From Nemertoderma westbladi (Eukaryota; Animalia; Xenacoelomorpha), in assembly GCA_032718475.1 (NCBI GenBank), contig JAUCBJ010006881.1, positions 59,795 to 123,794 on the forward strand: a stretch of 64,000 bases of DNA, in the 5' to 3' direction. Positions 790-39,100 of the stretch are shown here, piece after piece. The translations under genes and the position numbers were made by a program. Below the pieces are notes generated by a model. That model was not told the DNA's origin, did not search any database, and worked only from the letters and a program-made list of their open reading frames with translations. Each line of letters opens with the position of its first letter. The first letter of the stretch is position 1.

Positions 790-793
790 GGCC

Positions 794-3568: not shown

Positions 3569-3628
3569 TCAGGTCTTAAATGAGAGTCTTACAAATTCGA
3601 ACGGCAACGAACAAATTCGAAGGTTACT

Positions 3629-3702: not shown

Positions 3703-3749
3703 GGGCAGTTTTCGTTCGGTCAGCAATAGGCCTAACGTTGCAAAATGCA

Positions 3750-9819: not shown

Positions 9820-10132
9820 GATGACATTCTAGACTAGAAGTAGAATACACTACCCTGTACTGCTGTACGTACAGCTGTACGTACAGCAGTACGTACACGT
9901 CGCTGTCTCTTCTGTTCTTTATTATTACTAAATCCAGAAATCCTAGAAACTTCAGAACTTTGTAGGCCTAATGCCAAATGCAGTACAGCAGTACATCACC
10001 CCCACTTCCATTTTATTGTACATACTAACTAACTGTAAATAACTATTTAGGTAGGGCTCTAAGTTTAATTTTATTATACTGTACATATAGATAGACAATT
10101 ACATTTACGTACATACTTTCATAATTACCGTG

Positions 10133-11414: not shown

Positions 11415-11425
11415 ATAACAGTCAT
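11415..11425 (+). promoter_or_regulatory. Primer-binding site position: ATAACAGTCAT, complementary to LTR 10633-10643 (putative self-priming PBS)
   Basis: No TGG/tRNA-3'-end complement follows the LTR; exact 11-nt reverse complement of ATGACTGTTAT in the LTR. Confidence 0.7.
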
Positions 11426-13572
11426 TGACTTTATTGCAGTAAGCAATAAAGTTGAAAGTACCGGTCAACCGGTAAACCTGAACCTGTACTTCTGTAGGTC
11501 TGTAGGCCCAACTGTACTAACCGGTACTTCCAGTATAAGTACATTAGTATTATTCGATTTTGATTATTGCATACCGGTAGGCTGTTCAAGAGATTAGGGA
11601 CTGTATACCCCTTGTTTCTTTTGGAGCTTACTTATTTCTGTCAGTTTTATTTACATGTAAGTTAATATTGAGCTGAAGACGTGTAAGTCTGCTCAGATTG
11701 TTCAGATAATTGTAGGCCGGACTGTTGTCAGATTGTTGTTGGGTTTGGAGAGATTACGGCGTGTGTGGAGTTTGTCCGATAGAGTGCCAGTTAGTAAGTT
11801 GGGGCAGCCATTGCTGTAAGGTCAATCCCCTCTTAAAGAATAAGTCGTACTACCGTGTTAGAACGTATACTAACTAACAATTTTGGAATCTGCACATACT
11901 GTAGTTTATTTAGGCTTGACAGTATTCTGCCAGCGTTTTGGCTTGTGTTTGTTTGTGTAGTCTGTTCAGGTACCGTAATCGTTATTACTCAGATATTTTG
12001 TAGGCTGGATTGTTGTCTAGCTATTATTAGGTCTGAAGAGATTGCTGCTTGTGTAGAGTTTGTCTGATAAAGTGCCAGTTAGTAAGTTGGGGCAGTCATA
12101 ACTGTAAGGTCAATCCCCTCTTAAAGAATAAGTCGTACTACCGTGTTAGAACGCATACTAACTAACCGTTTTGGAATCTGCACATACAGTAGTTTATTTA
12201 GGCTTGGTGGTAGTCTGCCAGCATTTGGTTTGTATTTTGTTTGAGTATTCTGTACGGGTAGCGTAATATTTATTATTCAGAGTTTATGCGATTATTCGCA
12301 ACATTCATGTCCCCAAGTTTATTCCTACAGTAATTGTGTTTGTTATACATACCGTTATAGTTAAATTAACCCCGGTACTACACGGGCTGCTTGGCGTAGG
12401 ACAAGACTGGTGATTTTGTGCACCGGTCACTCCAGCAGATGCCGTGGTTCTTTTAACTGTTCAAGTATATTTAACTACTGATTATTTGTTGTACCAGTAC
12501 TTGTACCTAATTTAGGGTTTAGTGTACAGTGCTTTCCGAAGTAATTAGTGTGTAGGCAGTATATTTGTGTTGTAAAGTGGTTAATAGGCACGCTGGATCT
12601 GGTAGTCCGCGGTAATTAACTTCTAGGTAGGAACACTCCGTGATACATAACGTAGTACCTATAGCGATACGGTTATAGGTCGTCAGGCGGTGGTATTTTC
12701 CTATCTGGACAGTGCAATATATTTACTACTACTTATTATTTTCAAATACCGTAGTACCCTGTCCGTTGTAATAACCAGAATTCTAACCCTTTGTTAGGCT
12801 GGTTTGTAGACTTCCTGTAAAATTACCCTAAAAATTTCGTACGTAATATTTTTGTTGTGTTTAATTAGAGATTTAATCTCACCCGTATCGTACGTAATTT
12901 GTAGTATTAAGTAACTTAGGTAAATTAGAATTATCTGTTTTAGTGTCCAATAAATAGCACTTCACTGAGAGCGCACAGCTTCTGTGTAGTGACCCCCAGA
13001 AATAATAACATTTATTTCAAATATTGACAAAACCCTTTTTAAACGGGTATATATATATCTATTATAAATCAACTCAAACGATTTATAAATAGTAGGCCTA
13101 CCATACAACAACTAGGTCTCAAAATCAGTTGGACTCCTGCTTAAATAACGGTAACAAAGTAAGTTAAAGTAACCAAGTAACCCTAAATATTCAGAAATTT
13201 AATTATTATAAAAATAATTGACATACCGGTATTTACCATAGGCTTATTATATTTATTCTATAAATTCGAGCTGAAATCATACCGGTATTCTGTAATAATT
13301 CTAGTTCATAATTATACTTATATATACTATAAGTGTAAGCTGTATACCGGTATTCACGATAGGCCTATTATATATTTATATATATTTGTGCTAAATTATA
13401 TACCGGTACTCTGTGACAAACCTAGTTTACAATACTTATATATGTTATAAGTGCATACCGGTATTCTAATATACGGCAATAAATTACCGGTACTAGGCCA
13501 ACGGTCATACTGAATTACTAGACTTGCTTTAACTGTAACTATAGCAGTAGGCATTCAACTGTATAGCTAAAC

Positions 13573-16500
13573 ATGTCTGACACTCAGCAAAACCTGTCAG
13601 ACAGTCTAATCGATACAACCATCTGTGACACAGATAGGAGTGTGGAGCGTTTAATTAAGAAAGGAGTTCAGCTCACCTCCTACTGAAAGAAAAGTCATCC
13701 CTCCAGTAGTGATATCGGACCCTAAGCTAATCCAACACCGTAGGTCCATCATCGGCACTCGGGCCCAAGTCAAACGGAACCAGGAAGCAGCTGTCCCACA
13801 GCAGCAACAGCCTAGTCAAGAAACTTGTTCCCAGCGATCAGATAGCTCCAGTAGTTCGGATACTGTCGAACTGACCCCCGAACGCGGATTGCAGATGACG
13901 ACTAAAGCCTACTCGGACCCCCTTCTCACCCTTCCTGCCGCAGTGCTAACAACTATATTGATTGCGGTGGAGGAACATCAAGCAGATTGGGCGAGAAATA
14001 AGCGAGCGACCCAAGATGATTATGCGGGATACGCCAGGGAAGAATTGATGTCTATTGTCGAGTCACAATGGAACTTTCCCGGACCCGGACTCCCGTTAGA
14101 TCTGTCCGAGGCTACTTGGGAAGATATACACAGGATGGGAGTGGCTAAAGATACGATGGATCCAGCTGTTTGGAAGAGGTCGGCAGCAGGATATGTGCAG
14201 GGATTCTTCGGCTCCTTAGAGAGATTAGAAGAACAACTGTTTCGACAACCCCAAGGACCTCAAGAGCAGGAAGAACTGCTATATCAAGTATGCGAAAGAA
14301 CCCTACGCATACGACTAATCCTATCGGCTTTTGAGGAAACTTCCAAAAGAAGACAGGACACGTCGCTGCAGGTTGCTGTCAAAACTTGGTTCCAGCGGGT
14401 AGGTCTCCAAGTGCAAGAAACAGACCAGTGGAAATCCCAGCTGTCTGAGAGACTAACTCATGAAGAACCAACTGATGCCACCCTTTCTCAAGTGGAAGGC
14501 GAAGAAACCTCAGAGAAACCACGAACGAGAGACGCCATCGACATTTATCTGTCCGACTATCAGCGATTCCTAGGAGACGAAGAGTTGAGGAGACGGCTGT
14601 CTGGACTTTCCCCCAATAGTGAAGGAACCCAGCGTGTGTTAGATTCAATCGATGCTGAAATGTTAGCTGCTAACCAAGCTGAGTTTGATGAGAAACTCCG
14701 ACTCACTAGAGTCCAAGAAGAACTAGTAAAGAAAAAACGGATAGAGGACCGAAAGGCAGCTGCAGTAACAGCGGCAATGGCCGAAGTGGAAGCAGAAAGA
14801 AAGGCAGCTGCAGTAACAGCGGCGGCAGAAGCAGCAGCAGAAAGAAAGGCAGCGGCGGCAGAAGCCGAAGCAGAAAGAAAAGCGACTGTGGCAGCAGCAA
14901 AGGCAGTGGCAGAAGCAGAACGGAGAGCCTCTGAGGAGACTGCCCAACTGGAGTTGGAAAATCTGCAAGAGACGCAAGACAACATAAATAAACAGTTAAC
15001 TGCTAGTCACATGCAGATGATGAGAAAATCTACTCCCAAACGCCAGGGATATACGTCATCGGAGGAAAGCGAAACCACCTATCCTGAAGGCGGAGGAAAT
15101 AGATCTCATCTAAGTAGGCGTAGAAAAACAACTTACCGTCACAAATTGCCTGATTTGCCCCCAGCTGTTAGAAGACAACTAGCTAGCACAGACTTAAGTA
15201 GTATAGAACCTACAGACCAAATTATCAAGGTCAAAAGACTCCCTACTATAGTTGATGAGCCTGAAATAATTAGGCCTGTCGTTCCCAAAGTCACTCCTGT
15301 GTTAGAGACCCCTGTACTTCCAGAGCATAACTCTAAATTCCCTTTACACAGTACTACACTGCCTGTGCCCGGTAGAACAGTCCAGGAGAATATCCCTGTC
15401 CTGGAAGCTGAGAGAGAAATCAAAGATTTGTCTCCCGTCATCCCACGTCAGCCCGCTACAATGTTGGCGACTCCCGCTTCGGCGGTCGAGTGGGTAGAGG
15501 AGGGACGGCGGGGGATGAATCTCCTGCTCGGACAGATGCAGGAGACTGTCCGCCAGCTTAAGGGAACAGTAAGAGAAAGTAGGGCCGAATTGCAAGAAGT
15601 GCAGCAAAGTATCGCGCTAGAACGCGACAAATTAGTCAACATACAAAAGGGCATACCAATACCCCCTGTAACATTGTGTCAACCTGTTAGGTCTGAAGTA
15701 TTACATGCGCAAGGTGTGGAGCCTACACGCATCTATACTGCTAGTGAAGTAGAAACTCCTATAGCAAACCCTATTAAGAGTGATTATAGACCTGTTATTA
15801 ATGATATTCCCTATAGACCTGATACTGATCCGAGAAATTTATATACCGATAATTCGATATTAAATAACACGATGGCCCAAGAAAGCTTTACGCGGCAGAT
15901 GGCTAGAACAGAAGCCCGCCAAGCGGTCAAAGTGGGAGAGATCGTCAAATTCAATGGAGATGAGATGAAATGGTTACCTTTCAACGAATATTACAAAGAC
16001 AGCATACAGAACTCTGTACTATCTAACGGAGAGAAACTTAGGTTCCTCATCAAGTGCTTGGAAGGACCTCCCAAGTTAATGGCGTTAAAGTCCAGAAGAC
16101 ATCCAGAAGGATTAAGACAAGTATGGGATACATTAAACATCAGGTATGGTAACAAGGATAACATAGCTAAGTATTTGTATGCAAAATTAGTAGCCCCCCG
16201 ACACTTCCTTAGTAGCGGGATTATAGAGTTTTCCGATGAAATTCAGGAGATCTGTAGACAATTGGACTGGTTAGGTAAGTCTCATGAATATCAGAGTTCA
16301 ATGGTTATTGGAGCCATAGTCTCTACTTTACCAAAGGGTGGAGTATGTACACGCTGGGACAAGAAAGTGTTGTACATGAATGAACAACAACGACGAAGTC
16401 CTACCATGGCTGATCTCATGTCCTTCTTGGATGGTGAGGTAAAACTACAACTCATCAAGCAGTCCAGAGAGAAAACATCGGAAAATAAGGTATGTGAGAA

Positions 16501-17461
16501 ACCCGCTTCTAGGAGAAGAATAACACCGGTGTGTTACACTGACGACGGCGAAAGCCAAGTTTCTCAAGAAGAGGACAGCGGGAAAAACACTGAGCGATCT
16601 TACTACGTTGACAAAACCTCAAAAGATGTAAGTAAATACAAGGCTCGAAACAACGATAGGAGAGAACAGGTTGCCAGGACCCCCCCTCAGTCTCCTAACA
16701 GAATGCACCGAAGAAAACCCGAAGAAAAAACGAGAGTGCATCAGGTTACCCAAGGTAAAGTGAGTAACATAAAACCTAACTGTGCGCTGTGCGACGGGAC
16801 CCACCGTTTGAGTGCGTGTGCTGAATTTCTAAAGAAATCCCTTGTAGACAGACGTGCAGTTGTGTGGGACAAGCGGTTATGCTATAATTGCCTCAGACCA
16901 GGACACCAACGGCGAACCTGTTACTCCGACATAAAGTGTGCAAAGTGTGGCGCGAAACATCACATCTTGTTACACAGTGAGTTCGAACGAGACAAACAGA
17001 GTCAGGTAAGTGAGCCCGAACTACATGTCCAATTCAGTGATGTAAACGACACTGATCAGGAGTCTGAGATGGAAGGATTCTATACTGACGAATTCTCCGA
17101 CGCCAACGAATCCTGTTATCTAATCAATACCGCAGTGTATCGAGCACTTACTTATGAAAAGGTCACCAACGATGAGTTTCCCCCAACTACTTTTGCCAAA
17201 CAACCATCTTGGAAAGCTCCAACTTCCAACGTAGGAATCAGAGAATTTCCTGTGGTGCAGGTAAGAGTTCATGGTCTTAATAAAAGTTACATAGTGAACG
17301 CCCTCCTTGACTCTGGCAGCACAGGAACATTCATCGATCAAGAATTAGCCGAAGATATCTTTGCTGGACAACCCAAATTCCGGACTAAATTGAATATGTC
17401 AGGAATTATGCAGGTTTGGAAATCTACCTTAACGGCAGATTACTATGTAGGTGTAAGTTAG
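13573..17461 (+). CDS. gag: BEL/Pao gag + aspartic protease (likely true start ATG 13573; +4 frameshift at 13651-13658; open from 13709)
   Basis: Capsid-like region; CALCDGTHRLSAC / CYNCLRPGHQRRTC / CAKCGAKHHILLH knuckles; LLDSGS protease motif. The N-terminus MSDT.QNLSDSL is contiguous with the rest in the second copy. Confidence 0.9.
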
Positions 17462-17503
17462 GAATAGGATAAGTTAGGAACACAAGGTATAAGGTCGGTA
17501 AAA

Positions 17504-20500
17504 ATGGTGGCTATAAAGAACTTCGCTACTACTCAAGCAGACCTTTATAATTGGGACGAGGATGAGAGCATCCAACATCTTGAGATACCTCGATTCCAGA
17601 CAGATTATCCTGGAGTGCAAATCCTCATCGGCCAGAACGCGCATGAGGCGCTCGAAACATTGGAGAAACGGCCTGCTCAACCACAGCCACTGCAAACCTA
17701 TGCGGTAAGAACTAGAGTAGGTTGGTACTTTACTGGCCCTTCCCACAGGACTCTCGAAGAGAGAATGCCACAAGAACACACATACCAAGTACACGATTGG
17801 GAAGTGGAGAGCAGTGAGGTGGACGAACTAACTGAGGGAACACCATACTCCTCAGATAATGACGACATCTACCAACTCTTCGATGAAGAGAACACAATCG
17901 ACCTACTTACAGAAAACCAAACTTGGAAAAGTCAGGTGAACCTTTGTCAACTGATTCACCCATCGGAACAAAACGCTTACAATGACGAACTAAACGATGA
18001 GATAGAGCGCTACAACGCTAGAACTCGGGACGAACTAGCTGTACGATTCTTTACTCAGGAACTGGTAGAGCCCAATTCATATGATAAGGCTCTATCGATA
18101 GAAGAAGAAAGAGCCAAGCAAATCCAGGAAACAACTACACGTTTTTTAAAGGACCAAGGTAGGTATGAAATCGGCCTACCATTTGGAAAACGAGAACCTA
18201 GATTTATAAATAACAGACCCTTGGCAGAGAAAAGAATCGCTCAATTATATCGACGCCTTACAGCTAATGCTTCAGCGAAAGAAATGTACCAAACTCAGCT
18301 GAAGAAATTTATAACAAAGGGATACGCGGAGCGAGTACCGGAAGGAACACCAGTGACTGAGAGAATGTATTACTTAACACATCATTACGTTCCCAAACCC
18401 GGTAAACCCCATGAAGTCCGAGTCGTATTCGATGGCTCTGCGCTATATATGGGCCAATCCCTCAATTCCGAGTTGTTACCAGGACCCAACTTACTCCAAT
18501 CTTTGTTGGGAATACTATTAAGATTAAGACAATATTCCATCGCGTTCGCCTCTGATATAGAAGGAATGTTCTTACAAGTCAAGGCGCTGGATAGAGATAG
18601 AGACAGCCTGAGATTTCTGTGGTGGCCTGAAGGAGACCTCAACCAGAAACCGGTAGAGTACTGGATGACCATCCAGGCTTTTGGGATCATATCAAGCCCT
18701 TCCAACGCCTGCTCCGTGGTGCGAACCACTGCTAATGATAACCGGGACTCCTTCTCCAAAGAAGTGATAGACAACATAAAACGCAATATATACATGGACG
18801 ACAATTTAAGGTCCCTTCCATCAGTAGAAGAAGCCATAGCTGTCGCGAAAGGAACGGTAGAGTGTTTGAAAAGAGGTGGATTTCGACTGACGAAATTCAC
18901 TAGCAACTCCCGTGAGTTTCTGGAAGCCATACCGGTAGAAGACCGCGGAGCGAAAGATCTAGACTTGATAAAGGACGATCTTCCTGAAACCAAGACGCTT
19001 GGCTTGAAGTGGGACACTGAAAGAGACATCCTGTTTTTTCAGTTAAAACAGCGAGATAATCCAGTTCGGACCAAACGGATTTGTTTAAGTATCCTGAGCA
19101 CTTATTTCGACCCATTGGGATTTATTAGCCCAGTTATATTGATTGCTCGGAGTTTAGTACAACAGATGTGGCTTGAAAACCACTCATGGGACGATCCGCT
19201 TAAGGGAGAATTGTTGAAGAAATGGATGAAATGGGAAGATTCTCTACCTGCCATCGAGAACTTTATAATTTCCCGTGCATATTTTGGCCATGTTCTTCCT
19301 ACGTATTCCTATCAACTCCATGTGTTTGGAGACGCCAGCGACATGGGAATAGGTATAGTAGCATATCTTCGAGTCGAAACTCCGGATGGAATCAAGGTCG
19401 CCTTGGTTACCTCTAAGGCATTGATTAACAACAAGTTAAAGGTTCCTCGAGCGGAGTTAAAGGCGGCTTTATACGCTACAGCCATCGGCCGGAACGTAAC
19501 GGAACAAATCGACTATACACTGGAGAAAACGGTTTATTGGACCGACGCTTTACTCGTGTTGGAGTATCTCACCAATGAAGTCTGTCAGTTTAGCGTTTTT
19601 GTTACTAACCGAGTAGCTATTATTCTTAGTCGCACAAAGATAGATCAATGGAGACATTGCCCTGGTACGATTAATCCAGCCGATATCGCCTCCAGGGGAG
19701 CAACTCCACAGGAACTGATAGATACTCCAGATTGGTTGGGTGGACCCGACTTCCTGAGCAAGGAAGAGGATGAATGGCCTCCTCACCTTACTACGGCAGA
19801 GATTAGACAAGCCAAGGGAGCGGAGACAGTCAAACCTAAAACCCGGGCGAGTAAATCGAAGTTATTTAAACCGACTATCGATCTATCCGTATTACACACT
19901 TCCGGGAATGATGTTTCGGATCCACAATCCCTCAACACAAATAAGTCTGTTGTGGAAATTAGAGATAGAGATTGGAAATCTGGAATACCAGACGTCTCGC
20001 AAGGAATCTCACCCATGCTGCAGAGAGCAATGCATCATTACAGTTCCTGGAATCGGCTCTGTAAAGCCGTCACATATTTAAGACGATGTTTTCATCATCA
20101 CTACTCCAGGACGAAGACCATTAGTGATCACGCTCCATTGACATCTGCACAAGTTCATGTTATTAAGAATTTACCCAAATATAAGATATCTGATCGTTTT
20201 CTAAAAGAGAAAATTAGTCACCAGGAGTATGAAGAAACAAATAAACAGATACTGAGACTCCTGCAATGCTATGAGGATTCCGAAAAGTACTTCCTGTTGT
20301 TGAGAAATCCACAGATGCGCTTAAGGGATCGATTCTCGAGCACAATGATAGATGGGTTAATACGTGTTGGAGGAAGACTCACCAACGCCCCCTTATCCTT
20401 TGACACCAAATTCCCCATACTTATTAGAAATCTTGAAGTACAAATCAAGATGATTGTAGACGTTCACAGTAAACTTTACCATGCTGGTAGAGAACGAATT

Positions 20501-21676
20501 CTTAGCGAAATTCGAACTCGCTATTATTTTGATAAACCCCGTAGAGCTCTGAACCAAGTTCTTAGGAACTGCATACCCTGTAGGAAAGCATTCAGTAGGC
20601 CTTTAACACAGCGAGAGGCAGAATTACCTAGGGAACGAGTAAGCTTCTATGAACCACCTTTTACTAATACTGGTGTAGATTTATTTGGCCCTATTGAAGT
20701 ATATCGTGCGAGGACTATAGTCAAGAGATGGTGTGTCATCTTCGTGTGCATGACCTGGAGAGCCATCCATCTCGATATGGTGAACGATCTATCTACTAAC
20801 AGCTTCGTCTTAAGTTTACGACGACAGATCGCTCGCTTCGGGACGAGTAATACCATGAGATCGGATAAAGGAACGAACTTCATAGGTGCCAACAACGAGA
20901 TACAGGCTTACGTGAAGGACTGGAACCAAAGACAGGTGGACGACCAGCTAAGGATAACAGCGTCTAGCTGGACCTTCAACGCTGCCGACGCCCCTTGGTG
21001 GGGAGGAAGTTGGGAGAGATTAATTCGAAGTGTCAAAACCGCATTTCACTTTATAGTGCCATGCCGCGCGTATCTCACCGACGAACTTTTGCGGACGTTA
21101 ATGGAGGAAATCGCTGCCTATCTCAACGAGAGACCGCTTATGCCAGTCTCATCGAGTCCCGATTCCCTGGAAGCGCTAACACCCGCGCACTTCCTACTGA
21201 AGAAACCCGTAGCCATGCTCCCACGATCGGAGATTGCCGACGGAGACGAATACTGCCGTCGAACTTGGCAACTTATGCAGTTGCTATCCCGTCGTTTCGC
21301 TGACCATTTCGAGAAACATTATCTGCCCACGCTACAACTTCGAACTAAGTGGTTTGCGCAGCAAGAAAACGTCAGCGCCGGAGATATGGTGCTTATTGTA
21401 GATCCAGACCTCCCACGTAAACGGTGGCAGACAGGTCGTATCATCGAGACACACATTTCAGATGATGGTTTAGTACGCTCAGTAGAACTCATCGTCATGC
21501 GGCGTAACTTCAAGAAACCAGGCATCATCTTTGAGACGCAACAACTCAATCGCCCAGTTGGTCGTTTATGTTTACTGGAAAGAGACAGGGAACTCTCTGG
21601 AAACTATGGAAGGCAAGACACTCTTCCCACGACCACCTCCCTAATTCCTCAAACATCTAGGGACTCCCTAACGTGA
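17504..21676 (+). CDS. pol: BEL/Pao pol (RT, RNase H, integrase)
   Basis: RT (SDIEGMF, YMDD), RNase H (HVFGDAS, WTDA), integrase HHCC plus GVDLFG / SDKGTNF / WERLIR. Same frame as gag, separated by TAG-GAA-TAG. Confidence 0.95.
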   Translation: MVAIKNFATTQADLYNWDEDESIQHLEIPRFQTDYPGVQILIGQNAHEALETLEKRPAQPQPLQTYAVRTRVGWYFTGPSHRTLEERMPQEHTYQVHDWEVESSEVDELTEGTPYSSDNDDIYQLFDEENTIDLLTENQTWKSQVNLCQLIHPSEQNAYNDELNDEIERYNARTRDELAVRFFTQELVEPNSYDKALSIEEERAKQIQETTTRFLKDQGRYEIGLPFGKREPRFINNRPLAEKRIAQLYRRLTANASAKEMYQTQLKKFITKGYAERVPEGTPVTERMYYLTHHYVPKPGKPHEVRVVFDGSALYMGQSLNSELLPGPNLLQSLLGILLRLRQYSIAFASDIEGMFLQVKALDRDRDSLRFLWWPEGDLNQKPVEYWMTIQAFGIISSPSNACSVVRTTANDNRDSFSKEVIDNIKRNIYMDDNLRSLPSVEEAIAVAKGTVECLKRGGFRLTKFTSNSREFLEAIPVEDRGAKDLDLIKDDLPETKTLGLKWDTERDILFFQLKQRDNPVRTKRICLSILSTYFDPLGFISPVILIARSLVQQMWLENHSWDDPLKGELLKKWMKWEDSLPAIENFIISRAYFGHVLPTYSYQLHVFGDASDMGIGIVAYLRVETPDGIKVALVTSKALINNKLKVPRAELKAALYATAIGRNVTEQIDYTLEKTVYWTDALLVLEYLTNEVCQFSVFVTNRVAIILSRTKIDQWRHCPGTINPADIASRGATPQELIDTPDWLGGPDFLSKEEDEWPPHLTTAEIRQAKGAETVKPKTRASKSKLFKPTIDLSVLHTSGNDVSDPQSLNTNKSVVEIRDRDWKSGIPDVSQGISPMLQRAMHHYSSWNRLCKAVTYLRRCFHHHYSRTKTISDHAPLTSAQVHVIKNLPKYKISDRFLKEKISHQEYEETNKQILRLLQCYEDSEKYFLLLRNPQMRLRDRFSSTMIDGLIRVGGRLTNAPLSFDTKFPILIRNLEVQIKMIVDVHSKLYHAGRERILSEIRTRYYFDKPRRALNQVLRNCIPCRKAFSRPLTQREAELPRERVSFYEPPFTNTGVDLFGPIEVYRARTIVKRWCVIFVCMTWRAIHLDMVNDLSTNSFVLSLRRQIARFGTSNTMRSDKGTNFIGANNEIQAYVKDWNQRQVDDQLRITASSWTFNAADAPWWGGSWERLIRSVKTAFHFIVPCRAYLTDELLRTLMEEIAAYLNERPLMPVSSSPDSLEALTPAHFLLKKPVAMLPRSEIADGDEYCRRTWQLMQLLSRRFADHFEKHYLPTLQLRTKWFAQQENVSAGDMVLIVDPDLPRKRWQTGRIIETHISDDGLVRSVELIVMRRNFKKPGIIFETQQLNRPVGRLCLLERDRELSGNYGRQDTLPTTTSLIPQTSRDSLT

Positions 21677-23103
21677 TACGTCTGGAGTGGGTGTATGACT
21701 ATATTGTTTCATCTATTTTATTATATTTTTATATGCGAACTTTATTATGTACTTTATTATAATCGTTTTTATTCAATTTTATTTAGTAGAATGTTATTTT
21801 AGTATTATTTAGTAGATTAGTGCAATATATTAGTGTTTATTACGTACGTAATTACTTATAATATATATTTAGTGCGACGGCGAGAAATAATTTTTTCTCT
21901 TTCCTTACTGTACGTATCATATTATAAATACGTGACTACAGTAAGATGAAATGTCCGTACTTCTTAAAGTACAATAAAGCCACTACTATATTCAAGTATT
22001 ATTGGTAGGCAGAGTATTAGGAATGCAAAGTTCAGATCCTCGTGTCTCGGCTAAGCCAAGCTCTGGGTAGACCTTGGAAACGACTTGCCTCTTCACACTG
22101 ACATTGCTTCGTGCGATATTGCTCTTCTACCTTATATATAATAATACATATAGTAGCGTGATGTCCCTATAACAGTAGCGTAAAACGCAAATAAATCTGT
22201 TAACCTTTTGACCATCTGTAATTCTAGTCGATTAAGATATCGCGGCACCCACCGATATACTTGAAAGACAAATTCTAGAATCAGTGGTTAACGTCCCCAG
22301 ACAAGTTCTGGAATAAATCGGTGCCCATCTTAAATATTAATTTAATATTTATTAAAATCTGTAAAATTCAGATCCTTTAAAATTTCTAGTCAATTAAGAT
22401 ATCGCAGCACTTACCGATACTCTTAAAAGACAATTTTATAGAATTAAAGATCCTATGTCCCCAGACCTGCTCTGGAATCAAATTGTGTCAATTTTAACAT
22501 CAAATAATAAAATTCACGGGAATAAATTTAAATTCATATTTTAAATGAATTTCATAAATTGTCATTTTGTACAATTTATAACATTCCCAAAATTCCATTA
22601 ATTAATAGATCATGGGAGCGGAGATTCATCCTATTGAGTGTATTAGAGTGCGAGAATCTCCAACATATAGTCAATAGCCGATAAAATTAACAAAATCATG
22701 CATAAAGAGGATATTGACAATTAAAGAATTATTATTAAATAGCATCCCAGATCTGTATGCATGAGAATTACCCTAATTCTACCGCTAGCATTCCATAATG
22801 TCACCATAGCAACACCCACGCTAGAATTAGAAGCAAGTTAAAAGAACAATAGAAAGCTTGTCCCATTGCATAGCATAGAGAACATAGCACACTGTTAGTA
22901 TCCAAGGATACACAGTAATAAAGTGACATTCTGGAAGGCACTGACTAACGGACAAATGGCCTGTGTGTGTGCAGTTGTTGACAGTTGTGTGGAATTTGTG
23001 CGTTTATAGGTGAATGTTACTGCTAAAGTATGTTTACAGTAGCTAGTCGCAATTGTAAAAATAGCCCAACTCTCCTATAGAAAGAACCTAAGTGGATCCA
23101 AGC

Positions 23104-23254
23104 CTTTGGGACGGACAGTGGAGTGACTTGTGCCGGTTATCGTTGTCGTGCTGTTGCTACATGTTGGCGTAAACACCGCGACGACGGTACATCGGCGCTG
23201 AGAATCCCACTGTCCGGGGGCAAAGAAAAGTAGGCAGCGACGCCCGCTCGCCTA
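23104..23254 (+). other. Long imperfect RNA hairpin plus small hairpin upstream of ORF3
   Basis: cggacagtgg/ccactgtccg, gtgccgg/tcggcgc and tatcgttgtcgtg/cgcgacgacggta pair with many G-U pairs; then taggcagcg/cgctcgccta. Confidence 0.6.
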
Positions 23255-23295
23255 AATACAAACTTATTTGATATTAATAAACTCAGATAGCAGAT

Positions 23296-26200
23296 ATGAC
23301 GGAGTTAATAGAAGATGATCTTGGTATTAGGGAGCGATATACTCTACCTTTGCAAGCATTTGTGGATAGCTTAATACGCGGTGAAGCCGATCCAACCATT
23401 ACGGAGGACGATGGTCGTTATATCGAACCGCCGATGTCCCAAGAGCAACTTGCGCGTGAATTGGACTATCGAAAATTCACCACTCGCTATACGAATCGTA
23501 ATGGTACGTATATGGACTTCCTAACGACCGGCCATCCTATCGACTTACATGATACGGACGATGTAGATACAGAAAGGGAAATGGTTCTATTTAAATATCA
23601 TACCCAGCAGAGTCGTAACGATAAACCGAGAATAGATCACGAAAATTCTATTCGTAATAGACTAGAAAGAGAAAACATTGAAGAACCGGATAAACGCATC
23701 GACTTCAACGAATACTTAGAGTTTTTGAGAGAAACCTATCTCAACGTCGCTAGTCAGCAGAACTTAGAGACTCGATATCCTCAAGGTATCCATCACGACC
23801 CTGTAGTCGAACTCAAACGGCTCTATTTCACTATGATGTATCTTACCGCCGATCGTCCACTACCTGTTATCCCGGATAGTTTTGAACAAATGGAAGAATA
23901 CTGCAAAACTGGAGAACGAACACCCGCGTTTCCTCTACAGGACGTACGTCTTTGGTATTATTGTGACGAATGTCCTAGACCTAACCAACAAACTGAAAGA
24001 CATAAACATCCGCAGAGACGTTGCGCTAAACATAGTTTTACGCGTTACACTTACGGGAGTTTCGAGCGAAACCTGTTCGACATACCACCCACGATCGCTC
24101 GTCTTAAACGATCACTGAATAAACCCATGATCAGAGTTCCGGAATACTCGGTCAGGCCTCCTCATTCCCTAGTGAGACCTCAAACTCTTGATCCTAACAG
24201 TATCACTGATCCTCCCGAACTATATTCCCTGTTCAAAGACTTAGTGTTACCCGAACAACTAATCGGTGGTGCTCCGGTAGTGGGTTCGTTAGACATCCGC
24301 CCATCCTACTTAGCCGGATTGGGACGCGGGCAGCTAATATCGCCCTTTGATCCTTACAATCGTCCAGGATTAAACCCAATACAACCCGCCACGGAAGTCG
24401 AGGAGAGTGTTATAAGAAACGCTTTAGACGCCATTCGACAGAAAATCGGAAAGGGAACACAATATTGTTTAGAGAAACGTAAATTACAACAACAAGTCCA
24501 ATCGGTGAAGGAGTTAGCCTTGCCACAATTCGATAGAGAAATCCAAAACCTCGAGGAAGACATCGAGCTTGGACGCACGTATTCTCTACAAGAATTTTTA
24601 GATGAACGCTTACAGAGACAAGCAGAAGAAAATCTAATCGAAGAGAAACACACGAAACTGGAAGAAAGAGAAGAAGCCGCTTTAGCCCAACCTGAAGCTC
24701 AAATCCTCATGACGGACCTCTACTCTAAAACCGTTCGTCATCCCTCTATGATTCCACATTTCGGAGACAAGCTCTTCGCGACGATACAACCTCAACCGGT
24801 TGATATCAGTACAGGATCGCAAAACCTTATCGCTGACGCCCCTATGTTACAGCGTCCGCCGATCGAGGCCGCTCGTGTTGACGGTATACTCGTTGAACCT
24901 CCGGACAATCGAGCGGATCTTGTCCGTCGTATGGTACACGATGTCAACATACGCGCTAGACCTTTACAGAACTCGTTTTACGGGATTAAAGACCACCCTT
25001 ATTACGTTAATCTGACTCAATATTATATGGTAAAACCAGAAGACCCGACACATGATTTAAAGTTTCTACCACTAATAAATCCTCTAGACATTGTCGAACT
25101 CGAACAATTGCAGAAACATCTGGATCAGTTTGTAAAGGTAAACTCATTTAGAAAACCATATAACATTTCTCGAATCGAGAAAGATATAGAACCTCCTTAT
25201 AACCTCGATGGATTTATTAAAACTCGATTAGTCCATTGGAATCTAGATGTATTATTTGAAGAAGAGAAAATACAAAGATTTGGAAATGTGGAGACGTATA
25301 CCACTCGGCATATGAAGTATAGTGACCTCCCTGACGCTAACCAATGCGCCACCTTGTGGCATCCAGTAGGGATGACCCTAGAGAACGCCACCAAGGAGTG
25401 GAATGAAACTCTTAATGTTATTGAGATGTATGGAGTTGTCACCTACGATAATGAAGGTAGCGTTCCGGTCGGAGAGCTAGGAACTACGCGCATGATCCAC
25501 ATCCGCGGATTAGCTGGTTCTACCCACGTGTTTACTCGAGCGTGTTCCGACTTGATTGATTATTCTTTTGAAACTCTCACCGAAACACAAAAGAATCTCC
25601 GACATGGACAATTCGAACTCGCGCAGCGTTACGTCATTGACACCGAACGCAAACCGGCCATGGGCATCGATGGATCGATGTTACCCCAGCCCGTACTCGA
25701 GATGTTGTTCAACGAAAGAATCCTTAAAATCGGCTCAGCTGTTTATGGAGATCTCCAAAACGACTTTCGAAATATGGAGGACATTCCATACCCTTTCGTT
25801 GATACTCAGCTGATTGCTCCCTGGGCAGAAGGTCGAGGTTTCTTCCGCACCATGTATGCTAATACGTCTAGCAACATTACCAAGGTGCAACGAACTTCCA
25901 TCGGACATCTTGCCTTTCAGGAATACGGATGGAATTTCAAAGTCGGAAATCCCATTAACTATCAACAGGTATACGGAGACCATTATTCTCGATTATACTT
26001 TGATGGACCATTGACCGCACCTGGCGCCGTGTATAGCTTCATGAGTGTTCCGCTCCGTCCCTCCTTAGCTATATACACGATCTTTGAAAACACCGCACTT
26101 GCCGGTTGGCTAGCCGATGTGTGCAGTCGTACTATACGCGCCCATCCATTAATACTTGGGACCAAACTCGCGAAACTAGATGAACATAATAAATTCATCC

Positions 26201-27549
26201 GTTTCGAATGTTTCCGGAGATTTTTAACCCCGTTTCGCAACGTGGATAGCCAATTTAAAGACTGCGCTTTGACCAAACTCAGCCTAAGAAACTCAGCTGC
26301 AGAGAAGTTGGATAGCGCTGGATTCGCCATTTTCCAAGAGATTTGTATATCGAACTTGCACTCCTCAGTTATACAAAGACCTCGAATCCCCACAGGTTAT
26401 TCTGTCGTGGAAATTCAGACGATAGGTCCACCTGAAGAGACAGACACGCCCACTTCAGCTATGCACTTGGAAGACGAACCAATATGTCTAGAATCTGAAG
26501 AGATTCAGCCTATCGCGCCCCGGACCAGCGACAACGATTACATCATAGAATGGTATCAAGGCCCACAGTGTCTCACTGCGTACGATTATCGACATGCCAA
26601 CTATGTTTCTAGGCAACATTGTCGGTTATGCGCATCGAGAGACCACGATACGCCCCTGGACACCAACGTCCGCTGTTCCTATTTCCGACTACAACCGACT
26701 ATGGAAATTTATTGCGCATATTGCAGACTCAATAACTTACATATCTTTGCAGTTTGCCCTCAATTTATGACTCAATGTCACCATTGTCAACTAAAGGGAC
26801 ATGCTAGTTTCGACTGCCCTTTTAATCACGATTTGGAAAGCGTAGATGAAATGATCACACTGCGTTACATCAGAGCTTGGGAAGCGAACGCTGATTTACA
26901 TTGTGATTCGCGCCATCGCTATTATCCCGGACGCGCTTACGAAGGAGTTTATGCGTTCCATCCTTATCTATTCGCTTCGGTTGAACAGAAATCACGCATA
27001 TCAAGTTACGAGCTACTGAAGCGCGTCGGAGAATGTATTTCAACCAAATTCGTACGCAAATTTCTCAGGAGTGTTAATCCTAGCGACCTTCATTCCTATA
27101 ACTTAATCAATTATATCCGTCAGGATCCGGACTATGGAGACTTGTTTGTTAACTCACATCCCGAGTTGCAGGAAGTACATCGAAGGCCTTACGAATACCG
27201 AGCCCGCGAACGCGAGTTGGAAAGGACCATTAAACCCCGGAAGTTTCTAACTGCCTATGGTCCACCCACGGCCCTCGTTCAGACCACTCGTAAAGGACCC
27301 GTAAGAGCGGCTGTCTTGAAACGAGCTCTCAAAGCCGTTAGACCCCTCTCACCTGACGTTGATGTCAATCAACCCGGTACTTCGACTGGCGGATACACCG
27401 ACCATAATCCTACACCCTCTGATGCAATCATATTGCACCCTTCACCCAGGAGTTATAGCCCTCCTTGTAAAGTGGCTCGCCCCAAAGAGAAAAGGACTCT
27501 TGCTAGCTTTAAAAAACTGCGTAAACGCCGTCCGCGCAAGAAAGACTAA
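23296..27549 (+). CDS. Retrotransposon accessory ORF3: DEDDy-like 3'-5' exonuclease fold + Zn knuckles + coiled coil + basic C-terminal NLS
   Basis: Intact 1417 aa inside the LTRs. Motifs VVTYDNEG (ExoI-like), LPQPVLEMLFNERILKIGSAVYGD (ExoII-like), FVDTQLIA, SIGHLA, IYTIFE (degenerate ExoIII); CRLC/CAYC/CHHCQLKGHASFDC; KKLRKRRPRKK. Confidence 0.8.
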   Translation: MTELIEDDLGIRERYTLPLQAFVDSLIRGEADPTITEDDGRYIEPPMSQEQLARELDYRKFTTRYTNRNGTYMDFLTTGHPIDLHDTDDVDTEREMVLFKYHTQQSRNDKPRIDHENSIRNRLERENIEEPDKRIDFNEYLEFLRETYLNVASQQNLETRYPQGIHHDPVVELKRLYFTMMYLTADRPLPVIPDSFEQMEEYCKTGERTPAFPLQDVRLWYYCDECPRPNQQTERHKHPQRRCAKHSFTRYTYGSFERNLFDIPPTIARLKRSLNKPMIRVPEYSVRPPHSLVRPQTLDPNSITDPPELYSLFKDLVLPEQLIGGAPVVGSLDIRPSYLAGLGRGQLISPFDPYNRPGLNPIQPATEVEESVIRNALDAIRQKIGKGTQYCLEKRKLQQQVQSVKELALPQFDREIQNLEEDIELGRTYSLQEFLDERLQRQAEENLIEEKHTKLEEREEAALAQPEAQILMTDLYSKTVRHPSMIPHFGDKLFATIQPQPVDISTGSQNLIADAPMLQRPPIEAARVDGILVEPPDNRADLVRRMVHDVNIRARPLQNSFYGIKDHPYYVNLTQYYMVKPEDPTHDLKFLPLINPLDIVELEQLQKHLDQFVKVNSFRKPYNISRIEKDIEPPYNLDGFIKTRLVHWNLDVLFEEEKIQRFGNVETYTTRHMKYSDLPDANQCATLWHPVGMTLENATKEWNETLNVIEMYGVVTYDNEGSVPVGELGTTRMIHIRGLAGSTHVFTRACSDLIDYSFETLTETQKNLRHGQFELAQRYVIDTERKPAMGIDGSMLPQPVLEMLFNERILKIGSAVYGDLQNDFRNMEDIPYPFVDTQLIAPWAEGRGFFRTMYANTSSNITKVQRTSIGHLAFQEYGWNFKVGNPINYQQVYGDHYSRLYFDGPLTAPGAVYSFMSVPLRPSLAIYTIFENTALAGWLADVCSRTIRAHPLILGTKLAKLDEHNKFIRFECFRRFLTPFRNVDSQFKDCALTKLSLRNSAAEKLDSAGFAIFQEICISNLHSSVIQRPRIPTGYSVVEIQTIGPPEETDTPTSAMHLEDEPICLESEEIQPIAPRTSDNDYIIEWYQGPQCLTAYDYRHANYVSRQHCRLCASRDHDTPLDTNVRCSYFRLQPTMEIYCAYCRLNNLHIFAVCPQFMTQCHHCQLKGHASFDCPFNHDLESVDEMITLRYIRAWEANADLHCDSRHRYYPGRAYEGVYAFHPYLFASVEQKSRISSYELLKRVGECISTKFVRKFLRSVNPSDLHSYNLINYIRQDPDYGDLFVNSHPELQEVHRRPYEYRARERELERTIKPRKFLTAYGPPTALVQTTRKGPVRAAVLKRALKAVRPLSPDVDVNQPGTSTGGYTDHNPTPSDAIILHPSPRSYSPPCKVARPKEKRTLASFKKLRKRRPRKKD

Positions 27550-27619: not shown

Positions 27620-27627
27620 GGGAGCGG
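27620..27627 (+). promoter_or_regulatory. Short purine-rich tract (GGGAGCGG, PPT) abutting the 3' LTR
   Basis: Lies directly before the TG of the 3' LTR. Confidence 0.6.
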
Positions 27628-28909
27628 TGTAAAAGCTTCTGTGGGATATAACTGGCCCCTTTGCTTCGCAATCCAGTTTCCCCCCAGGCGCTGGAATACT
27701 CTAAAAAGGTTCTCTAACTGTATAAATATTCCCCTCGCCCTCAAGGTACCGTTACAGGTGTTTTAACGGACATAAAAGTCATTCTGCTATATACGTGTTT
27801 TAGCGGACATGGTAAGACAAAAAACCTGCAATGCGACAAATACCTTTCATAGCTTAGCCGTGATGATTAATATTACGACATCTAACAGCTGGTTGCTGAC
27901 ATGGAAACAGCCATTGAACGCATGGTTCTTTGTTTGGCTTGAACCAATCAGAGCGATTTTTCCTGTCGACGTGTAGCTTTTCGGTCGATCATAGGGAGAG
28001 TGTTCAGTCTTACTGTTTTTTCTTGATACTTTGTTGTTATTGCTGTCTAGGCCAGGAACAACGGCTCTAGAGTCAATTCGTTTCATACTTTTATAAGAAA
28101 CATTAGTAGGCTTAAATTATAGAGCGTATGACTGTTATGAATACACAGTCTATATCATAACACATCATATATCAATTTATATCAACTTGTTTCTATTCTT
28201 GTATTATCGGTTCAATATACATTATTATACTGCTGTTTACTATTGTTTGGTGGAACATTATTTGGAGAACATATATAAAGAACCCAAATTTCCCAATTTT
28301 CTTGATACACTACAGGTTAGAGAGACGGGTTATATATAGCGATTGCGACTTATATTGTTGTGGTTTGTAGTGAATTTAATGCTATTTAATAAGCACTACA
28401 TTGGTCCGTTGCTATTCCCTTTATATATGATAAAATTCATTGACGGTCGGCAAATTAGTGAGCAGTATTGTGTGTTACCGGTATTGTGCATGATTGTGAT
28501 TGATAACTAAGCATTTCCTAAAGAATGCGCCTCATACGTGAATCTTAAGCCTTACCGACTTACCGTTGTGATTAGTATAAGTCATATCTCTGTTTACTTA
28601 GATAGAGCGCCACGTCCTAAAGGAACTGTTAATATTTCCCGAAAGTAAATAATATTAGTCAGAAATTAATTATTAACGATCAATCGAATAATACAATACA
28701 GTAAGCTTCACTGCAATAATAATTTAAGCCGACAGAATCCAGTCTCCCGGGATTATCCAGCGGGTGAATGGACGCGCACTAGGCTGGCTTCTGCTAATGT
28801 TGTGTTTATTGGTATAAAATATTTGTCTTCTTCTAAAGTATATTTATAAACCAAAAGACATATAAATTTTGGCAGGTTAAACTGCTAAAGGTCTTCAAAA
28901 GCGCGTACA
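27628..28909 (+). repeat. 3' LTR
   Basis: Near-identical to 10133-11414; followed by the CCGTG TSD. Confidence 0.97.
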
Positions 28910-29289
28910 CCGTGTTCTATTATTGATAAAGTTTAAGTTTATATATTTTATTCAATAAAACTCATAGTTAAATTAACACATGAGGCAGTCTATGTTTATA
29001 TTTGTAAAAATATATTTAGGCAAAATATTATCTTTGGGCAGATAATAATGGGATACTAGCTTTTTGTCTCAATTCTGTACCTGTTGTGTTCGTTATTTTT
29101 TGTCAAATATTAAGCGAAATGCATAATTTTGTACCTTTTCAAGTTTATACAGTATGTCCTTGTAACTAATTTTTGTTATTCATTTATAGTCTATAAATAA
29201 CAGCAATAAATTTTGATTGGCTAACGGGTATTGTACTGTAGCTCCAGTTAACATTTAATTCAAATTTCACATTTAATTCTAATGAAGAT

Positions 29290-36180: not shown

Positions 36181-39100
36181 AACGGGATAAGCAGGCTGTT
36201 AAACTGGAAAACGCCTTTGAACTGGAAGGAAGCTCTTGGTAGATATAAATTTATCATTTATCAGCTCTACAGTATCCGAACTACTGGAGCTGTCGGGCCA
36301 CTAAGTTAAGTTAAGATAAGTTCGCGGCTCGGGTGTTGCTGCTGTTTAACAGCTGCTTCTTGGTCCCGCTTGACTTGAGCCCGAGTGCCTATGATAGACC
36401 TACGGTGTTGGACTAGCTTAGGGTCTGATACTACTACTGGAGGGATGATCTTTCTTACAGTAGGAGGTGAGTTGAACTTCGGTCTCAAGCGTTCAGCACT
36501 CCTATCTGGGTCACAGATGGTTGTATCTAGGAGACTGTCTGACAGGTTTTGCTTTGTGTCAGACATGTTTGTTTGTACAGTTGAATGCCTACTGCTATAT
36601 TACAGTTAAAGCAAATCTAGTAATTCAGTATCAACTGTTAGCCTAGTAATTAATTACCGATATCGTTACTCTATGTAACGTGATATATATATACAATATA
36701 TTAGAGTACCGGTATACACTTATAGTATATATATAAGTATTATTACAGACTAGGTTTGTCACAGAATACCGGTATATAATTTCAGCACAAATATATATAA
36801 ATATATAATAAGCCTATCGTGAATACCGGTATATAACTTACACTTATAGTATATAAGTATAATTATAGACTAGAATTAATTACAGAATACCGGTATATAA
36901 TTTCAGCTCAAATTTATAGAAATAAATATAATAAGCCTATTGTAAATACCGGTATGTCAATTATTTTAGAATAATTGAATTTCTGAATTTTAGGGTTACT
37001 TGGTTACTTTACTTTACTTTATTACCGTTATTTAAGCAGTAGTCCAACTGATATTAAGACCTAATTGTTGTATGACAGGCCTACTATTTTATAAATCGGT
37101 TTGAGTTGATTTATAATATATATATACCCTTTTAATGGGTTTTGTTACAATATTTGAAATAAATGTTATTATTTCTGGGAAGGAGTCACTACACAGAAGC
37201 TGTACGCTCTCAGTGGAGTGCTACCTATTGGACACTAAAACAAATAATTCTAATTTACTAAGTTACTTATTACTACAAATTATGTACAATTGCGGGGTGA
37301 GATTACAATCTCTAAATAAACACAAAAATTACAGGTACGAATTTTTAGGGTTAATTTTACAAGAAATCTACAAACCAGCCTAACAAGGAGTAATATCTGG
37401 TTATTACAAACGGACAGGATACTACGGTATTTGAAAATAATAAAGCAGTAGTAAATATATTGCGTTGTCTAGATAGGAAAAATACCACCGTCTGACGACT
37501 TATAGCCGTATCGCTATAAGTACTACGTTGTGTACCCGGAGTGTTCCTACCTAGAAGTTAATTACCGCAGCCTACTATAGCTAACGTGCCTATTAACCAC
37601 TTTACAACACAAATATATTGCCTACACACTAACTACTTTCGGAAAGCACTATACACTAAACCCTAAATTAGGTACAAGTACTTATACAACAAATAACCAG
37701 CAGTTAAAAATACTTGTACAGCTAAAAGAACCACGGTATCTGCCGGAGTGACCAGAGCATAAAATCACCAGTCTTTACCTACGCCAAACAGCCCTGATGT
37801 AGTACCGGGGTTAATTTAACTATAACGGTATGTATAACAAGCACAATTACTGTAGGAATAAACTTGGGGTATGTATGTTGCGAATAATCGCATAAACTCT
37901 GAATAATAAATATTACGCTACCCGTACAGACTACACAAACAAAATACAAACCAAATGCTGGCAGACTACTATCAAGCCTAAATAAACTACAGTATATGCA
38001 GACTCCGAAATGGTTAGTTAGTATGCGTTCTAACCGAGTAGTACGACTTATTCTTTCGGGGGGATTTACCTTACAGCACTGGATGCCCCCACGTTCCTAA
38101 CTATTACTTTATCGGACATACACTCTATACACACTGCAATCTCTTCAGACTTAACAACAGTCAGACAACAATCCAGCCTACAAATTATTTATATAATCTG
38201 AGCAGGCTTACACGCCTTCTGCTCAATATTAACTTACAAATAAATAAAACTGACAGAAATAAGTAAAATCCCAATAAAAAACCAGGGCTGCAGTCCCTGA
38301 TTAAATATCAAGACCTACCGGTATATAATTATCAAAATCGAATAATACTGCTATACCTGTACTGCTGTAAGTACCGGTTCGGGTGGTTAGGCAGTCAGGC
38401 CTACTGGTTACCGGTCGACAGGTACTTTTCGACTTTATTGCCTACGTTGCAATAAAGAAAGCAATAACTGTTATTGTTCTTACCAGAACAATAGACAACT
38501 ATATTTATTGCCTACACTGCAATCTGAAACAGATAACTGTTATTGTTTGCGCTTTTAGACCTTTAGCAGTTTAACCTGCCAAATTTAGGTGTCTTCTAGG
38601 TTATAAATCGACTTTAGCCTATAACAAGTATTTGATACACATAAAGCTACATTAGCCAAAGCCAGCCTATGCGCGATCATTCACCCACGGTTAAGGGAGA
38701 CTGGATTCGGATGCTCTGACCTTATTGCGGTGTAGGCCTACTGTACTATTCGATTGATCATTAATATATAATCTCTGACAAATATTATTCACTTTCGGGA
38801 AATATTAACAGTTCCTTTAGGACGTGGCGCTCTAAGTATGTAAACAGAGTTATGACTTACACTAAACACAACGGGATGGCTAATGATTTACGTATAAAGC
38901 GCATTCTTTAGGAAATGCTTTGTTATCTATCACACTCATGCACACTACCGCACACTGCTGCACACTGATCTGCCGACCTTCACTCATTTTGATCATATAT
39001 AAGGAGAACAGCAACTGACACATGTAGGGTCTATGAAATAGCATTCAATTCACTCCAAAACCACTATAATGTAAGTCGCAATTGCTATATGTAACCGGTC

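Follow-up and report, generated by a model that had tools for sequence, protein, structure and literature searches.

An intact third reading frame with a predicted DEDDy-type exonuclease domain in the envelope position of a Nemertoderma westbladi BEL/Pao retrotransposon

The third open reading frame (ORF3) of an 18.8 kb BEL/Pao element, located in a 64,000-nucleotide stretch of Nemertoderma westbladi DNA (the window), is a conserved accessory gene which is present across the public contigs of this BEL/Pao family. The reading of its sequence that we favour, and to which we give a probability of about 40%, is that ORF3 would be a working DEDDy 3'-5' exoribonuclease that acts in trans, probably in the nucleus, and blunts host RNA silencing or surveillance. 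With this, ORF3s of the nuclease type, described for rotifer Ty3/gypsy and Athena elements, would reach a third reverse-transcriptase lineage that is distant from both, in a different architecture that joins the nuclease to nucleocapsid-like knuckles and is common to proteins only 24-29% identical; such repeated recruitment suggests that retroelements generally need a 3'-5' exonuclease. As the family is young and high in copy number, and offers an intact copy of the gene, derivatives with natural deletions and a primer structure that is defined, the anti-silencing, RNA-adaptor and primer-trimming models are directly testable.

The BEL/Pao element and the position of ORF3

The element enclosing ORF3 is a BEL/Pao LTR retrotransposon, with TG..CA LTRs, a short target duplication and BEL/Pao-specific gag and pol domains (Table 1), and it is very large and belongs to a young, high-copy family; its LTRs are 99.84% identical, with 2 differences in 1282 nt. 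The catalytic motifs of pol are present in an order that fits PR-RT-RH-IN, and they read as those of RT, RNase H and integrase. Comparison with the sister copy placed a frameshift near 13650 in gag, and the protease region carries two in-frame stops. As originally predicted, ORF3 is uninterrupted inside the LTRs beside these lesions, and the chance of an open frame of such length is about 1e-33. The contrast between an intact ORF3 and a broken gag/pol was considered as proof of selection and rejected, since by chance alone three lesions would all spare ORF3 in 28% of cases. In the spacer, immediately 5' of ORF3, we noticed TATA/initiator-like spacing and acceptor-like AGs, signals which suggest that ORF3 may have its own promoter or a spliced mRNA.

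ORF3 lies after pol and before the 3' LTR, the envelope position, and an envelope glycoprotein identity was rejected in agreement with the earlier reading: its peak hydropathy over 19 residues is 1.21, it begins with an acidic N-terminus, the hydropathy profile shows no evident signal peptide or membrane segment, and there is no Pfam env match. A duplication of gag as the source of the N-terminal half was likewise rejected (best E 0.12). The motifs quoted in the original prediction were all found at their places, CDEC at 23962, YDNE at 25444, FVDTQ at 25795, YTIFE at 26074 and the basic tail at 27511. Its three zinc knuckles, which lie at 26620, 26713 and 26776, are present in all three proteins compared (ORF3 and two homologues described below), and their profile matches the retroviral (HIV-1) nucleocapsid at E 5e-4; an ESM Atlas search with this region returned only leads under 0.9. 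The Cys/His cluster C223-H246 is absent from both homologues found. The proposed coiled coil fits in composition, its sole basis, with 66% E/Q/K/R/L/A and 1% Pro.

Table 1. Features of the element, of ORF3 and of the sister copy, in window coordinates
Feature	Position	Strand	Basis
Target-site duplication, 5 bp, left copy	10128..10132	.	Identical 5 bases at 28910-28914
5' LTR, 1282 nt, TG...CA	10133..11414	+	Comparison with 3' LTR
Candidate self-primer; exact 11-nt complement of the bases that directly follow the LTR	10633..10643	+	Shuffles, sister copy
Primer-binding site; does not begin with TGG as a tRNA-type site would	11415..11425	+	Sequence
15-bp hairpin directly after primer site	11425..11459	+	z = -3.9, 0/200 shuffles as stable
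Gag-protease, BEL/Pao type	13574..17461	+	Pfam DUF1759 E 7e-12
Remaining pol: RT, RNase H, integrase	17468..21676	+	Pfam Peptidase_A17 E 4e-36, DUF5641, Integrase_H2C2
Non-coding spacer, 1.6 kb, with duplicated ~113-nt unit	21677..23295	+	Sequence
ORF3, 1417 aa, intact, soluble	23296..27549	+	ATG 23296 to stop 27549
Cys/His cluster C223, C226, H236/H238, C243, H246; possible Zn site	23962..24033	+	Sequence
Coiled-coil-like segment, aa 371-465	24406..24690	+	Composition only
Predicted DEDDy-type 3'-5' exonuclease domain (aa ~701-950): D718, E720, D819, Y927, E931	25396..26145	+	Sequence searches
Three CCHC knuckles (aa 1109-1174), then conserved segment to aa 1236	26620..27003	+	Common to P0002/P0003
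Lys/Arg-rich C-terminus, candidate nuclear localisation signal	27466..27546	+	Sequence; function inferred
Short purine tract preceding 3' LTR	27620..27627	+	
3' LTR	27628..28909	+	LTR comparison
Target-site duplication, 5 bp, right copy	28910..28914	.	Matches left copy
Sister copy, truncated: part of an LTR, the leader and the beginning of gag; nothing of ORF3	36261..39740 (right end approximate)	-	77-86% identical

The predicted nuclease domain and the presence of ORF3 across the family

The searches with the block at aa ~701-950 are weak but convergent and point to a DEDDy 3'-5' exonuclease fold. In the ESM Atlas, clusters of PF01612 made up 25 of the 30 matches; the score was 0.93, on 167 shared features, just below the tool's benchmark of 170, and shuffled sequences attain 0.9 in 4-10% of cases. 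The RNase D profile TIGR01388 matched ORF3 itself at E 0.003, PF01612 matched the homologue P0002 at E 0.035, and a three-sequence profile run against PDB gave only two matches at E<=10, Egalitarian (0.056) and EXD2 (0.2), in whose alignments ExoI, ExoII and ExoIII stand in register with ORF3. None of the profile matches of the domain is singly significant or reaches a curated cut-off, Pfam gave nothing on ORF3 at E<=1, and single-sequence PDB searches returned chance matches only. The DEDDy-like assignment of the original prediction stands on convergent searches and invariant ligands, and its structural part found no such backing: both AlphaFold models, from the sequence alone and from a 3-row alignment, had a pLDDT of 30.5, and a Foldseek search with this low-confidence model was uninformative, returning no match.

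Two distant homologues, P0002 and P0003, which come from ENA contigs of 3-12 kb, are 24-29% identical and both hold the nuclease together with the three CCHC knuckles. D718, E720, D819 and Y927 belong to the 27 invariant columns among 185 aligned in the three proteins, so that the ExoI D-x-E, the ExoII D and the ExoIII Tyr are the same in 3/3; position 931 is Glu in ORF3 and P0002 and Asp in P0003, and ORF3 is without the upstream Trp of ExoIII found in both homologues. The earlier description of ExoIII as degenerate, and of the protein as a possible pseudo-nuclease, was overstated, as the Tyr and an acidic residue are kept and the other three ligands are invariant. These residues are consistent with a two-metal active site having Glu as the ExoIII ligand.

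Furthermore, 4/4 public runs under two organism labels covered ORF3 in all bins, and the gene is not missing from other members of the family, an absence which would have made it a one-off capture. Among the 13 contig pieces listed in ORF3, which are 2-20% diverged, 10 are ungapped. When the best 40 of 4161 differences, chosen by support, were tallied, 9 of the 13 listed in ORF3 were silent against 28% expected (p 0.003), and 3 of the 11 listed in gag were silent, with no excess. Deep public contigs contain junctions that skip pol and junctions that skip the nuclease domain, and hence derivatives lacking pol or lacking the nuclease exist. No close cellular relative of ORF3 was found among 1.84 billion representatives; word-index searches and locus scans of metagenome, viral and prokaryote contigs for ORF3 homologues found nothing, and tblastn against plasmids gave one chance match only.

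Proposed role of ORF3 and competing explanations

ORF3 is not fused to gag/pol, has a 1.6-kb spacer upstream and ends in a basic tail, and we argue from these features that it would act outside the particle; action in trans is argued from the existence of derivatives without pol or without the nuclease domain. In the reading that we favour, ORF3 would be made from a separate mRNA, driven or spliced from the preceding spacer, and the basic tail would bring the protein into the nucleus. There the three nucleocapsid-like knuckles are predicted to bind RNA and the DEDDy domain, with its putative two-metal site and E931 as ExoIII ligand, would trim RNA 3' ends, at a guess most likely those of small RNAs or of the precursors to them, or else those of antisense transcripts against the element, and so act against host silencing or surveillance of the element.

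A rather unlikely alternative, yet one with several points in its favour, is that ORF3 is an RNA adaptor like Egalitarian or EXD1, in which the nuclease fold and knuckles bind structure in the element RNA, the coiled coil and the basic tail steer that RNA, either out of the nucleus, as CERV does for Cer1, or to the germ line, and catalysis is dispensable. Egalitarian is the best PDB match, though not a significant one, its putative catalytic residues are described as dispensable and it binds the I-factor localisation signal (PMC13186709); the kept residues of ORF3 are therefore not proof of activity. EXD1 is described as an inactive RNA adaptor (PMC4712191), CERV, a non-env protein in ORF3 position, as required for nuclear export (PMC10309623), and the 2.2-kb leader of the present element carries strong hairpins. 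However, EXD1 is without the acidic residues (SDLN/AELE; PMC4712191), and in ORF3 these ligands are kept across 24-29% identity.

The element also bears a strong self-priming signature. Published self-priming of the Tf1 type is recognized by a complement of the primer site of at least 10 bp inside the LTR (PMC6317226), and in both copies we found 11 nt; the pairing is retained in the sister copy through a compensatory change, and only 2 of 2000 dinucleotide shuffles attained 11 nt. It is distinctly unlikely that ORF3 finishes this primer, its exonuclease removing the 3' tail that stays unpaired, as far as the duplex, once the LTR-derived 11-mer has paired with the primer site. DEDDy enzymes are reported to trim single-stranded 3' tails (PMC5408684), and, as the LTR contains no AATAAA, sequence does not define the ends of the RNA. 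In Tf1, though, the cut is made by the RNase H of RT (PMC4600332), and RNase H motifs are present in our element, which consequently does not need ORF3 for self-priming; besides, a first internal cut is impossible for a 3'-5' exonuclease, and packaging of an ORF3 unfused to gag/pol is doubtful. We hold as unlikely, too, the more novel roles that the sequence might allow, either a dedicated primer maturation, in which an LTR-terminated RNA 3' end such as that of the ORF3 mRNA would pair via the 11-mer and ORF3 would chew the tail to the duplex with neither tRNA nor internal cut, or the first suppressor of piRNA silencing that is encoded by a retrotransposon and works by destroying small RNAs.

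The original prediction had offered anti-silencing, proofreading and primer processing as functions, and the last two are the weaker among them. That ORF3 proofreads the reverse transcription of an unusually long RNA genome of about 18 kb is very improbable: the element measures 18.8 kb and PF01612 takes in polymerase proofreading domains, but the named matches are RNase D, Egalitarian and EXD2 and not polymerase exonucleases, and ORF3 is a separate frame at a large distance from RT. The domains listed for the giant Burro elements, which are longer than 30 kb, include no nuclease (PMC6431247). There is an equally slight probability that the aa 700-950 block has no DEDD fold and matches by chance, as every match is singly sub-threshold and the pLDDT is 30.5; against this, the matches in four libraries agree on a single superfamily, and ExoI, II and III are where the invariant residues fall. 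Finally, it is extremely unlikely that ORF3 is a host gene of recent capture, or a passenger, that does nothing for the element, even though chance would leave the frame open in the present copy in 28% of cases, given its coverage in 4/4 runs, copies diverged up to 20%, mostly ungapped frames whose silent-change excess hints at a dN/dS well below 1, and the lack of a close relative among the cellular representatives searched.

Comparison with known systems

DEDDy ORF3s are carried by the bdelloid LTR elements Juno and Vesta, and also by Athena/Terminons (Rodriguez, Kenefick, Arkhipova 2017, PMC5408684), a direct precedent that the original prediction had missed. As described there, the Juno/Vesta proteins resemble the present ORF3 in being non-env, placed after pol and ahead of the 3' LTR, with a DEDDy domain like that of RNase D, a predicted one in ORF3, and no membrane segment, and in keeping the acidic residues with one D-to-E change; 3'-end processing or a mut-7-like role was already proposed by those authors (PMC5408684). 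Set beside the rotifer proteins by description, ORF3 has D-E-D-E in place of DEED, and its 1417 aa end in a basic tail and include a coiled-coil-like segment and three CCHC knuckles, whereas Juno/Vesta are described without coiled coils. Juno and Vesta are Ty3/gypsy-type, and the BEL/Pao element differs from them, as described, in its high copy number, its 18.8 kb and its self-priming signature. Our literature search, which covered sources other than subscription papers and Repbase entries, brought up no report of a BEL/Pao element with a DEDDy ORF.

Tf1, Tj1 and sushi share with our element a primer site complementary to their own LTR (PMC4600332, PMC6317226); in these accounts the self-primed elements are Ty3/gypsy chromoviruses and certain copia elements, and no accessory nuclease is involved. 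CERV of C. elegans Cer1 is similarly a non-env protein in the env position, has a leucine zipper, a Cys-rich part and an NLS, and regulates element RNA, but it is described with a G-protein-like domain, splicing to gag exons and no nuclease domain (PMC10309623). Roo and the BEL/Pao elements with Chuviridae-like/gB-like glycoproteins (Belpaoviridae) agree with the present element in gag/pol type and gene position (PMC13524379), and their ORF3 is env-like, in contrast to the soluble protein here with no evident signal peptide or membrane segment. ORF3 gave no match to HRDC, LOTUS or Mut7-C. With the PF01612 exonucleases EXD2, Egalitarian, RNase D, WRN-exo and Mut-7 it shares ExoI DxE, ExoII D and ExoIII Y-x3-acid in register and an LP..l..ll....ilKvG..i..D block, and it differs from them in being too diverged for a significant match, in its ExoIII Glu and in being borne by a mobile element.

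The nuclease-like block of ORF3

ORF3, which follows a 1.6 kb spacer, had been proposed to encode a DEDDy-like exonuclease with zinc knuckles and no membrane segment. Every motif quoted in that original prediction was found at its position, and no hydrophobic segment was found in ORF3 (hydropathy maximum 1.21). The whole frame gave no Pfam match at E<=1. HMMER search with aa 601-1250 against 1.84 billion representatives returned two distant homologues from ENA contigs: P0002, a protein of 648 aa (E 7e-8), and P0003, one of 575 aa (E 9e-4). Both keep the two ORF3 modules in order, a nuclease-like block and then three CCHC knuckles, with the conserved segment adjoining the knuckles C-terminally, and both are missing the first ~690 residues. 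The knuckles, searched as a profile, matched retroviral nucleocapsid (E 5e-4).

In the ESM Atlas, 25 of 30 matches to aa 680-960 were PF01612 clusters (score 0.93; 167 shared features), the best two being unnamed fungal clusters. NCBIfam gave RNase D for one of the three proteins, ORF3 itself (E 0.003 and 0.024), and Pfam gave PF01612 for another one, P0002 (E 0.035). With a three-row profile, the PDB yielded two matches at E<=10: Egalitarian, with E 0.056, and EXD2, with E 0.2; ExoI, ExoII and ExoIII stand in register in these alignments. Although no single search is decisive, all four agree on a DEDDy nuclease, and the block very probably has that fold; two structure predictions reached a pLDDT of 30.5 each, too weak for a fold search to be informative. 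Of the 185 columns in which all three proteins are aligned, 27 do not vary, D718, E720, D819 and Y927 among them (rough p 0.002, a value flattered since the same motifs anchor the alignment), and residue 931 is E in ORF3 and P0002 and D in P0003, so that the active site reads D-E-D-E with Tyr. Judged by these residues it looks more like a complete enzyme than like EXD1, whose ligands are described as lost (PMC4712191), and the earlier view of ExoIII as degenerate and of ORF3 as a possible pseudo-nuclease goes too far. Two points weigh the other way: ExoIII of ORF3 lacks the upstream Trp that both homologues have, and Egalitarian, the best PDB match, has putative catalytic residues described as dispensable (PMC13186709). 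The observation behind the original prediction is confirmed and its interpretation supported in part; catalytic activity of the predicted nuclease is slightly favoured.

The element, its copies and its derivatives

The element is assigned to BEL/Pao by its Pfam domains (DUF1759, E 7e-12; Peptidase_A17, E 4e-36; DUF5641; Integrase_H2C2), and in pol the motifs which we take to be those of RT, RNase H and integrase were all found, in order. It ends in TG..CA, is flanked by a 5-bp target duplication and its LTRs differ in self-comparison at 2 positions over 1282 nt; it is a very recent insertion of 18.8 kb. A gag frameshift near 13650, judged against a truncated sister copy, and two stop codons in frame within the protease region, taken with the near-identical LTRs, suggest that a helper acting in trans copied a defective RNA. 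These lesions and the uninterrupted ORF3 are both real, but the contrast drawn between them is uninformative alone (p 0.28). The non-coding leader holds most of the indels listed among copies.

Parts of ORF3 were present in six of seven listed public sequencing runs, under two organism labels, and all 30 element bins were covered in four of four runs, which shows ORF3 to be family-wide. The family is large and diverse, the contig records per run (133,727, 36,368, 1,377 and 851) being a measure of depth and not of copy number. The listing has 13 pieces within ORF3 that carry no joint and are 2-20% diverged; 10 of these are gap-free, and none of 12 listed indels (of 295) falls in ORF3. Forty of 4161 differences were listed, picked by support, and 31 lie inside ORFs; silent changes make up 9 of 13 in ORF3 (28% expected, p 0.003), 5 of 7 in pol and 3 of 11 in gag. 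Since the rows were support-picked and only one of those in ORF3 falls in the nuclease core, this excess is a hint of selection on ORF3 and not a dN/dS.

Contig joints skip 17865-19641, 19826-21539 and 23660-26465, one of them very deep in run X4; the last stretch is skipped in two of four runs and much of pol in up to four of four. Such joints mark non-autonomous deletion derivatives, and as these lack the nuclease or RT, both activities can be provided in trans. Immediately before ORF3, family sequences have a spacing like that of a TATA box and an initiator, though the window copy keeps it less perfectly, and acceptor-like AGs lie there too, which together make a separate ORF3 mRNA likely.

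Candidate roles of ORF3 and self-priming

ORF3 is soluble and separate from Gag-Pol, has three nucleocapsid-like knuckles predicted to bind RNA and a putative nuclease site conserved among distant homologues, and ends in a basic tail; these traits fit an accessory factor that would act on RNA outside the particle. Our leading reading (about 0.4) is that ORF3 is an active exoribonuclease which would trim or destroy RNAs that the host turns against the element, the substrate being a guess. DEDDy ORF3s themselves are known: Rodriguez, Kenefick and Arkhipova (2017) describe RNase D-like ones in rotifer Juno and Vesta and in Athena/Terminons, with motif DEED where ours has D-E-D-E, and already propose 3'-end processing and a mut-7-like role (PMC5408684), as two reviews restate (PMC5718144, PMC6431247). 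Published BEL/Pao ORF3s, as presented in PMC13524379, are fusion glycoproteins, whereas this one is soluble; a nuclease ORF in BEL/Pao was not found in the literature searched, Repbase and subscription papers lying outside it.

ORF3 could instead be an RNA adaptor, Egalitarian/CERV-like, given that Egalitarian's putative catalytic residues are described as dispensable (PMC13186709); we consider this unlikely, though the strongest competitor, as the ligands lost in EXD1 are kept here. Primer trimming is improbable. The 11 nt directly 3' of the 5' LTR (11415-11425) are an exact complement of LTR positions 10633-10643, a length reached by 2 of 2000 dinucleotide shuffles, and the sister copy, 77% identical, keeps the exact match through compensatory change on both sides. 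Such complementarity is the mark of self-priming used in PMC6317226, and the putative mechanism resembles that of Tf1/Tj1; in Tf1, according to a paper cited in PMC4600332, RNase H makes the cut, and since the element encodes RNase H its self-priming would be independent of ORF3. The 11-mer may be the RNA 5' end or lie near the RNA 3' end, and no AATAAA was found in the LTR. Proofreading by ORF3 and an erroneous DEDDy assignment, the latter against four agreeing searches, are both very improbable, and a mere passenger ORF3 is the least probable of all.

Other features of the window

The torsin gene is likely a processed pseudogene, and the caspase ORF is possibly a retrocopy.

Coordinates of the element, its parts and neighbouring features
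Feature	Positions	Strand	Detail
Inverted-arm element	1-4527		long inverted arms 1-792 and 3747-4527, 98%; encloses a 357-aa ORF of acidic tandem repeats and arrays of 22 nt
5' LTR	10133-11414	+	self-comparison; 1282 nt
Leader	11415-13573		2.2 kb, non-coding; 288-nt tandem duplication at 11702-12281, several hairpins
ORF3	23296-27549	+	open reading frame, 1417 aa
3' LTR	27628-28909	+	self-comparison; 1282 nt
Torsin gene	30796-31861	-	intron-less, frameshifted; Pfam Torsin E 1e-30
Related arm	34294-35304		related to arms of inverted-arm element
Sister copy	36261-39740	-	primer-site sequence repeated 69 nt further on (38474)
Sister-copy self-primer pair	39283-39273 / 38543-38533		counterpart of 10633-10643 / 11415-11425
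Pogo/Tigger-like DDE transposase pieces	45535-47965	-	decayed; DDE_1 E 3e-10
Short-chain dehydrogenase gene exon	48801-49259	-	adh_short E 1.5e-19
Caspase ORF	56562-57701	-	379 aa, intron-less; Peptidase_C14 E 2e-38
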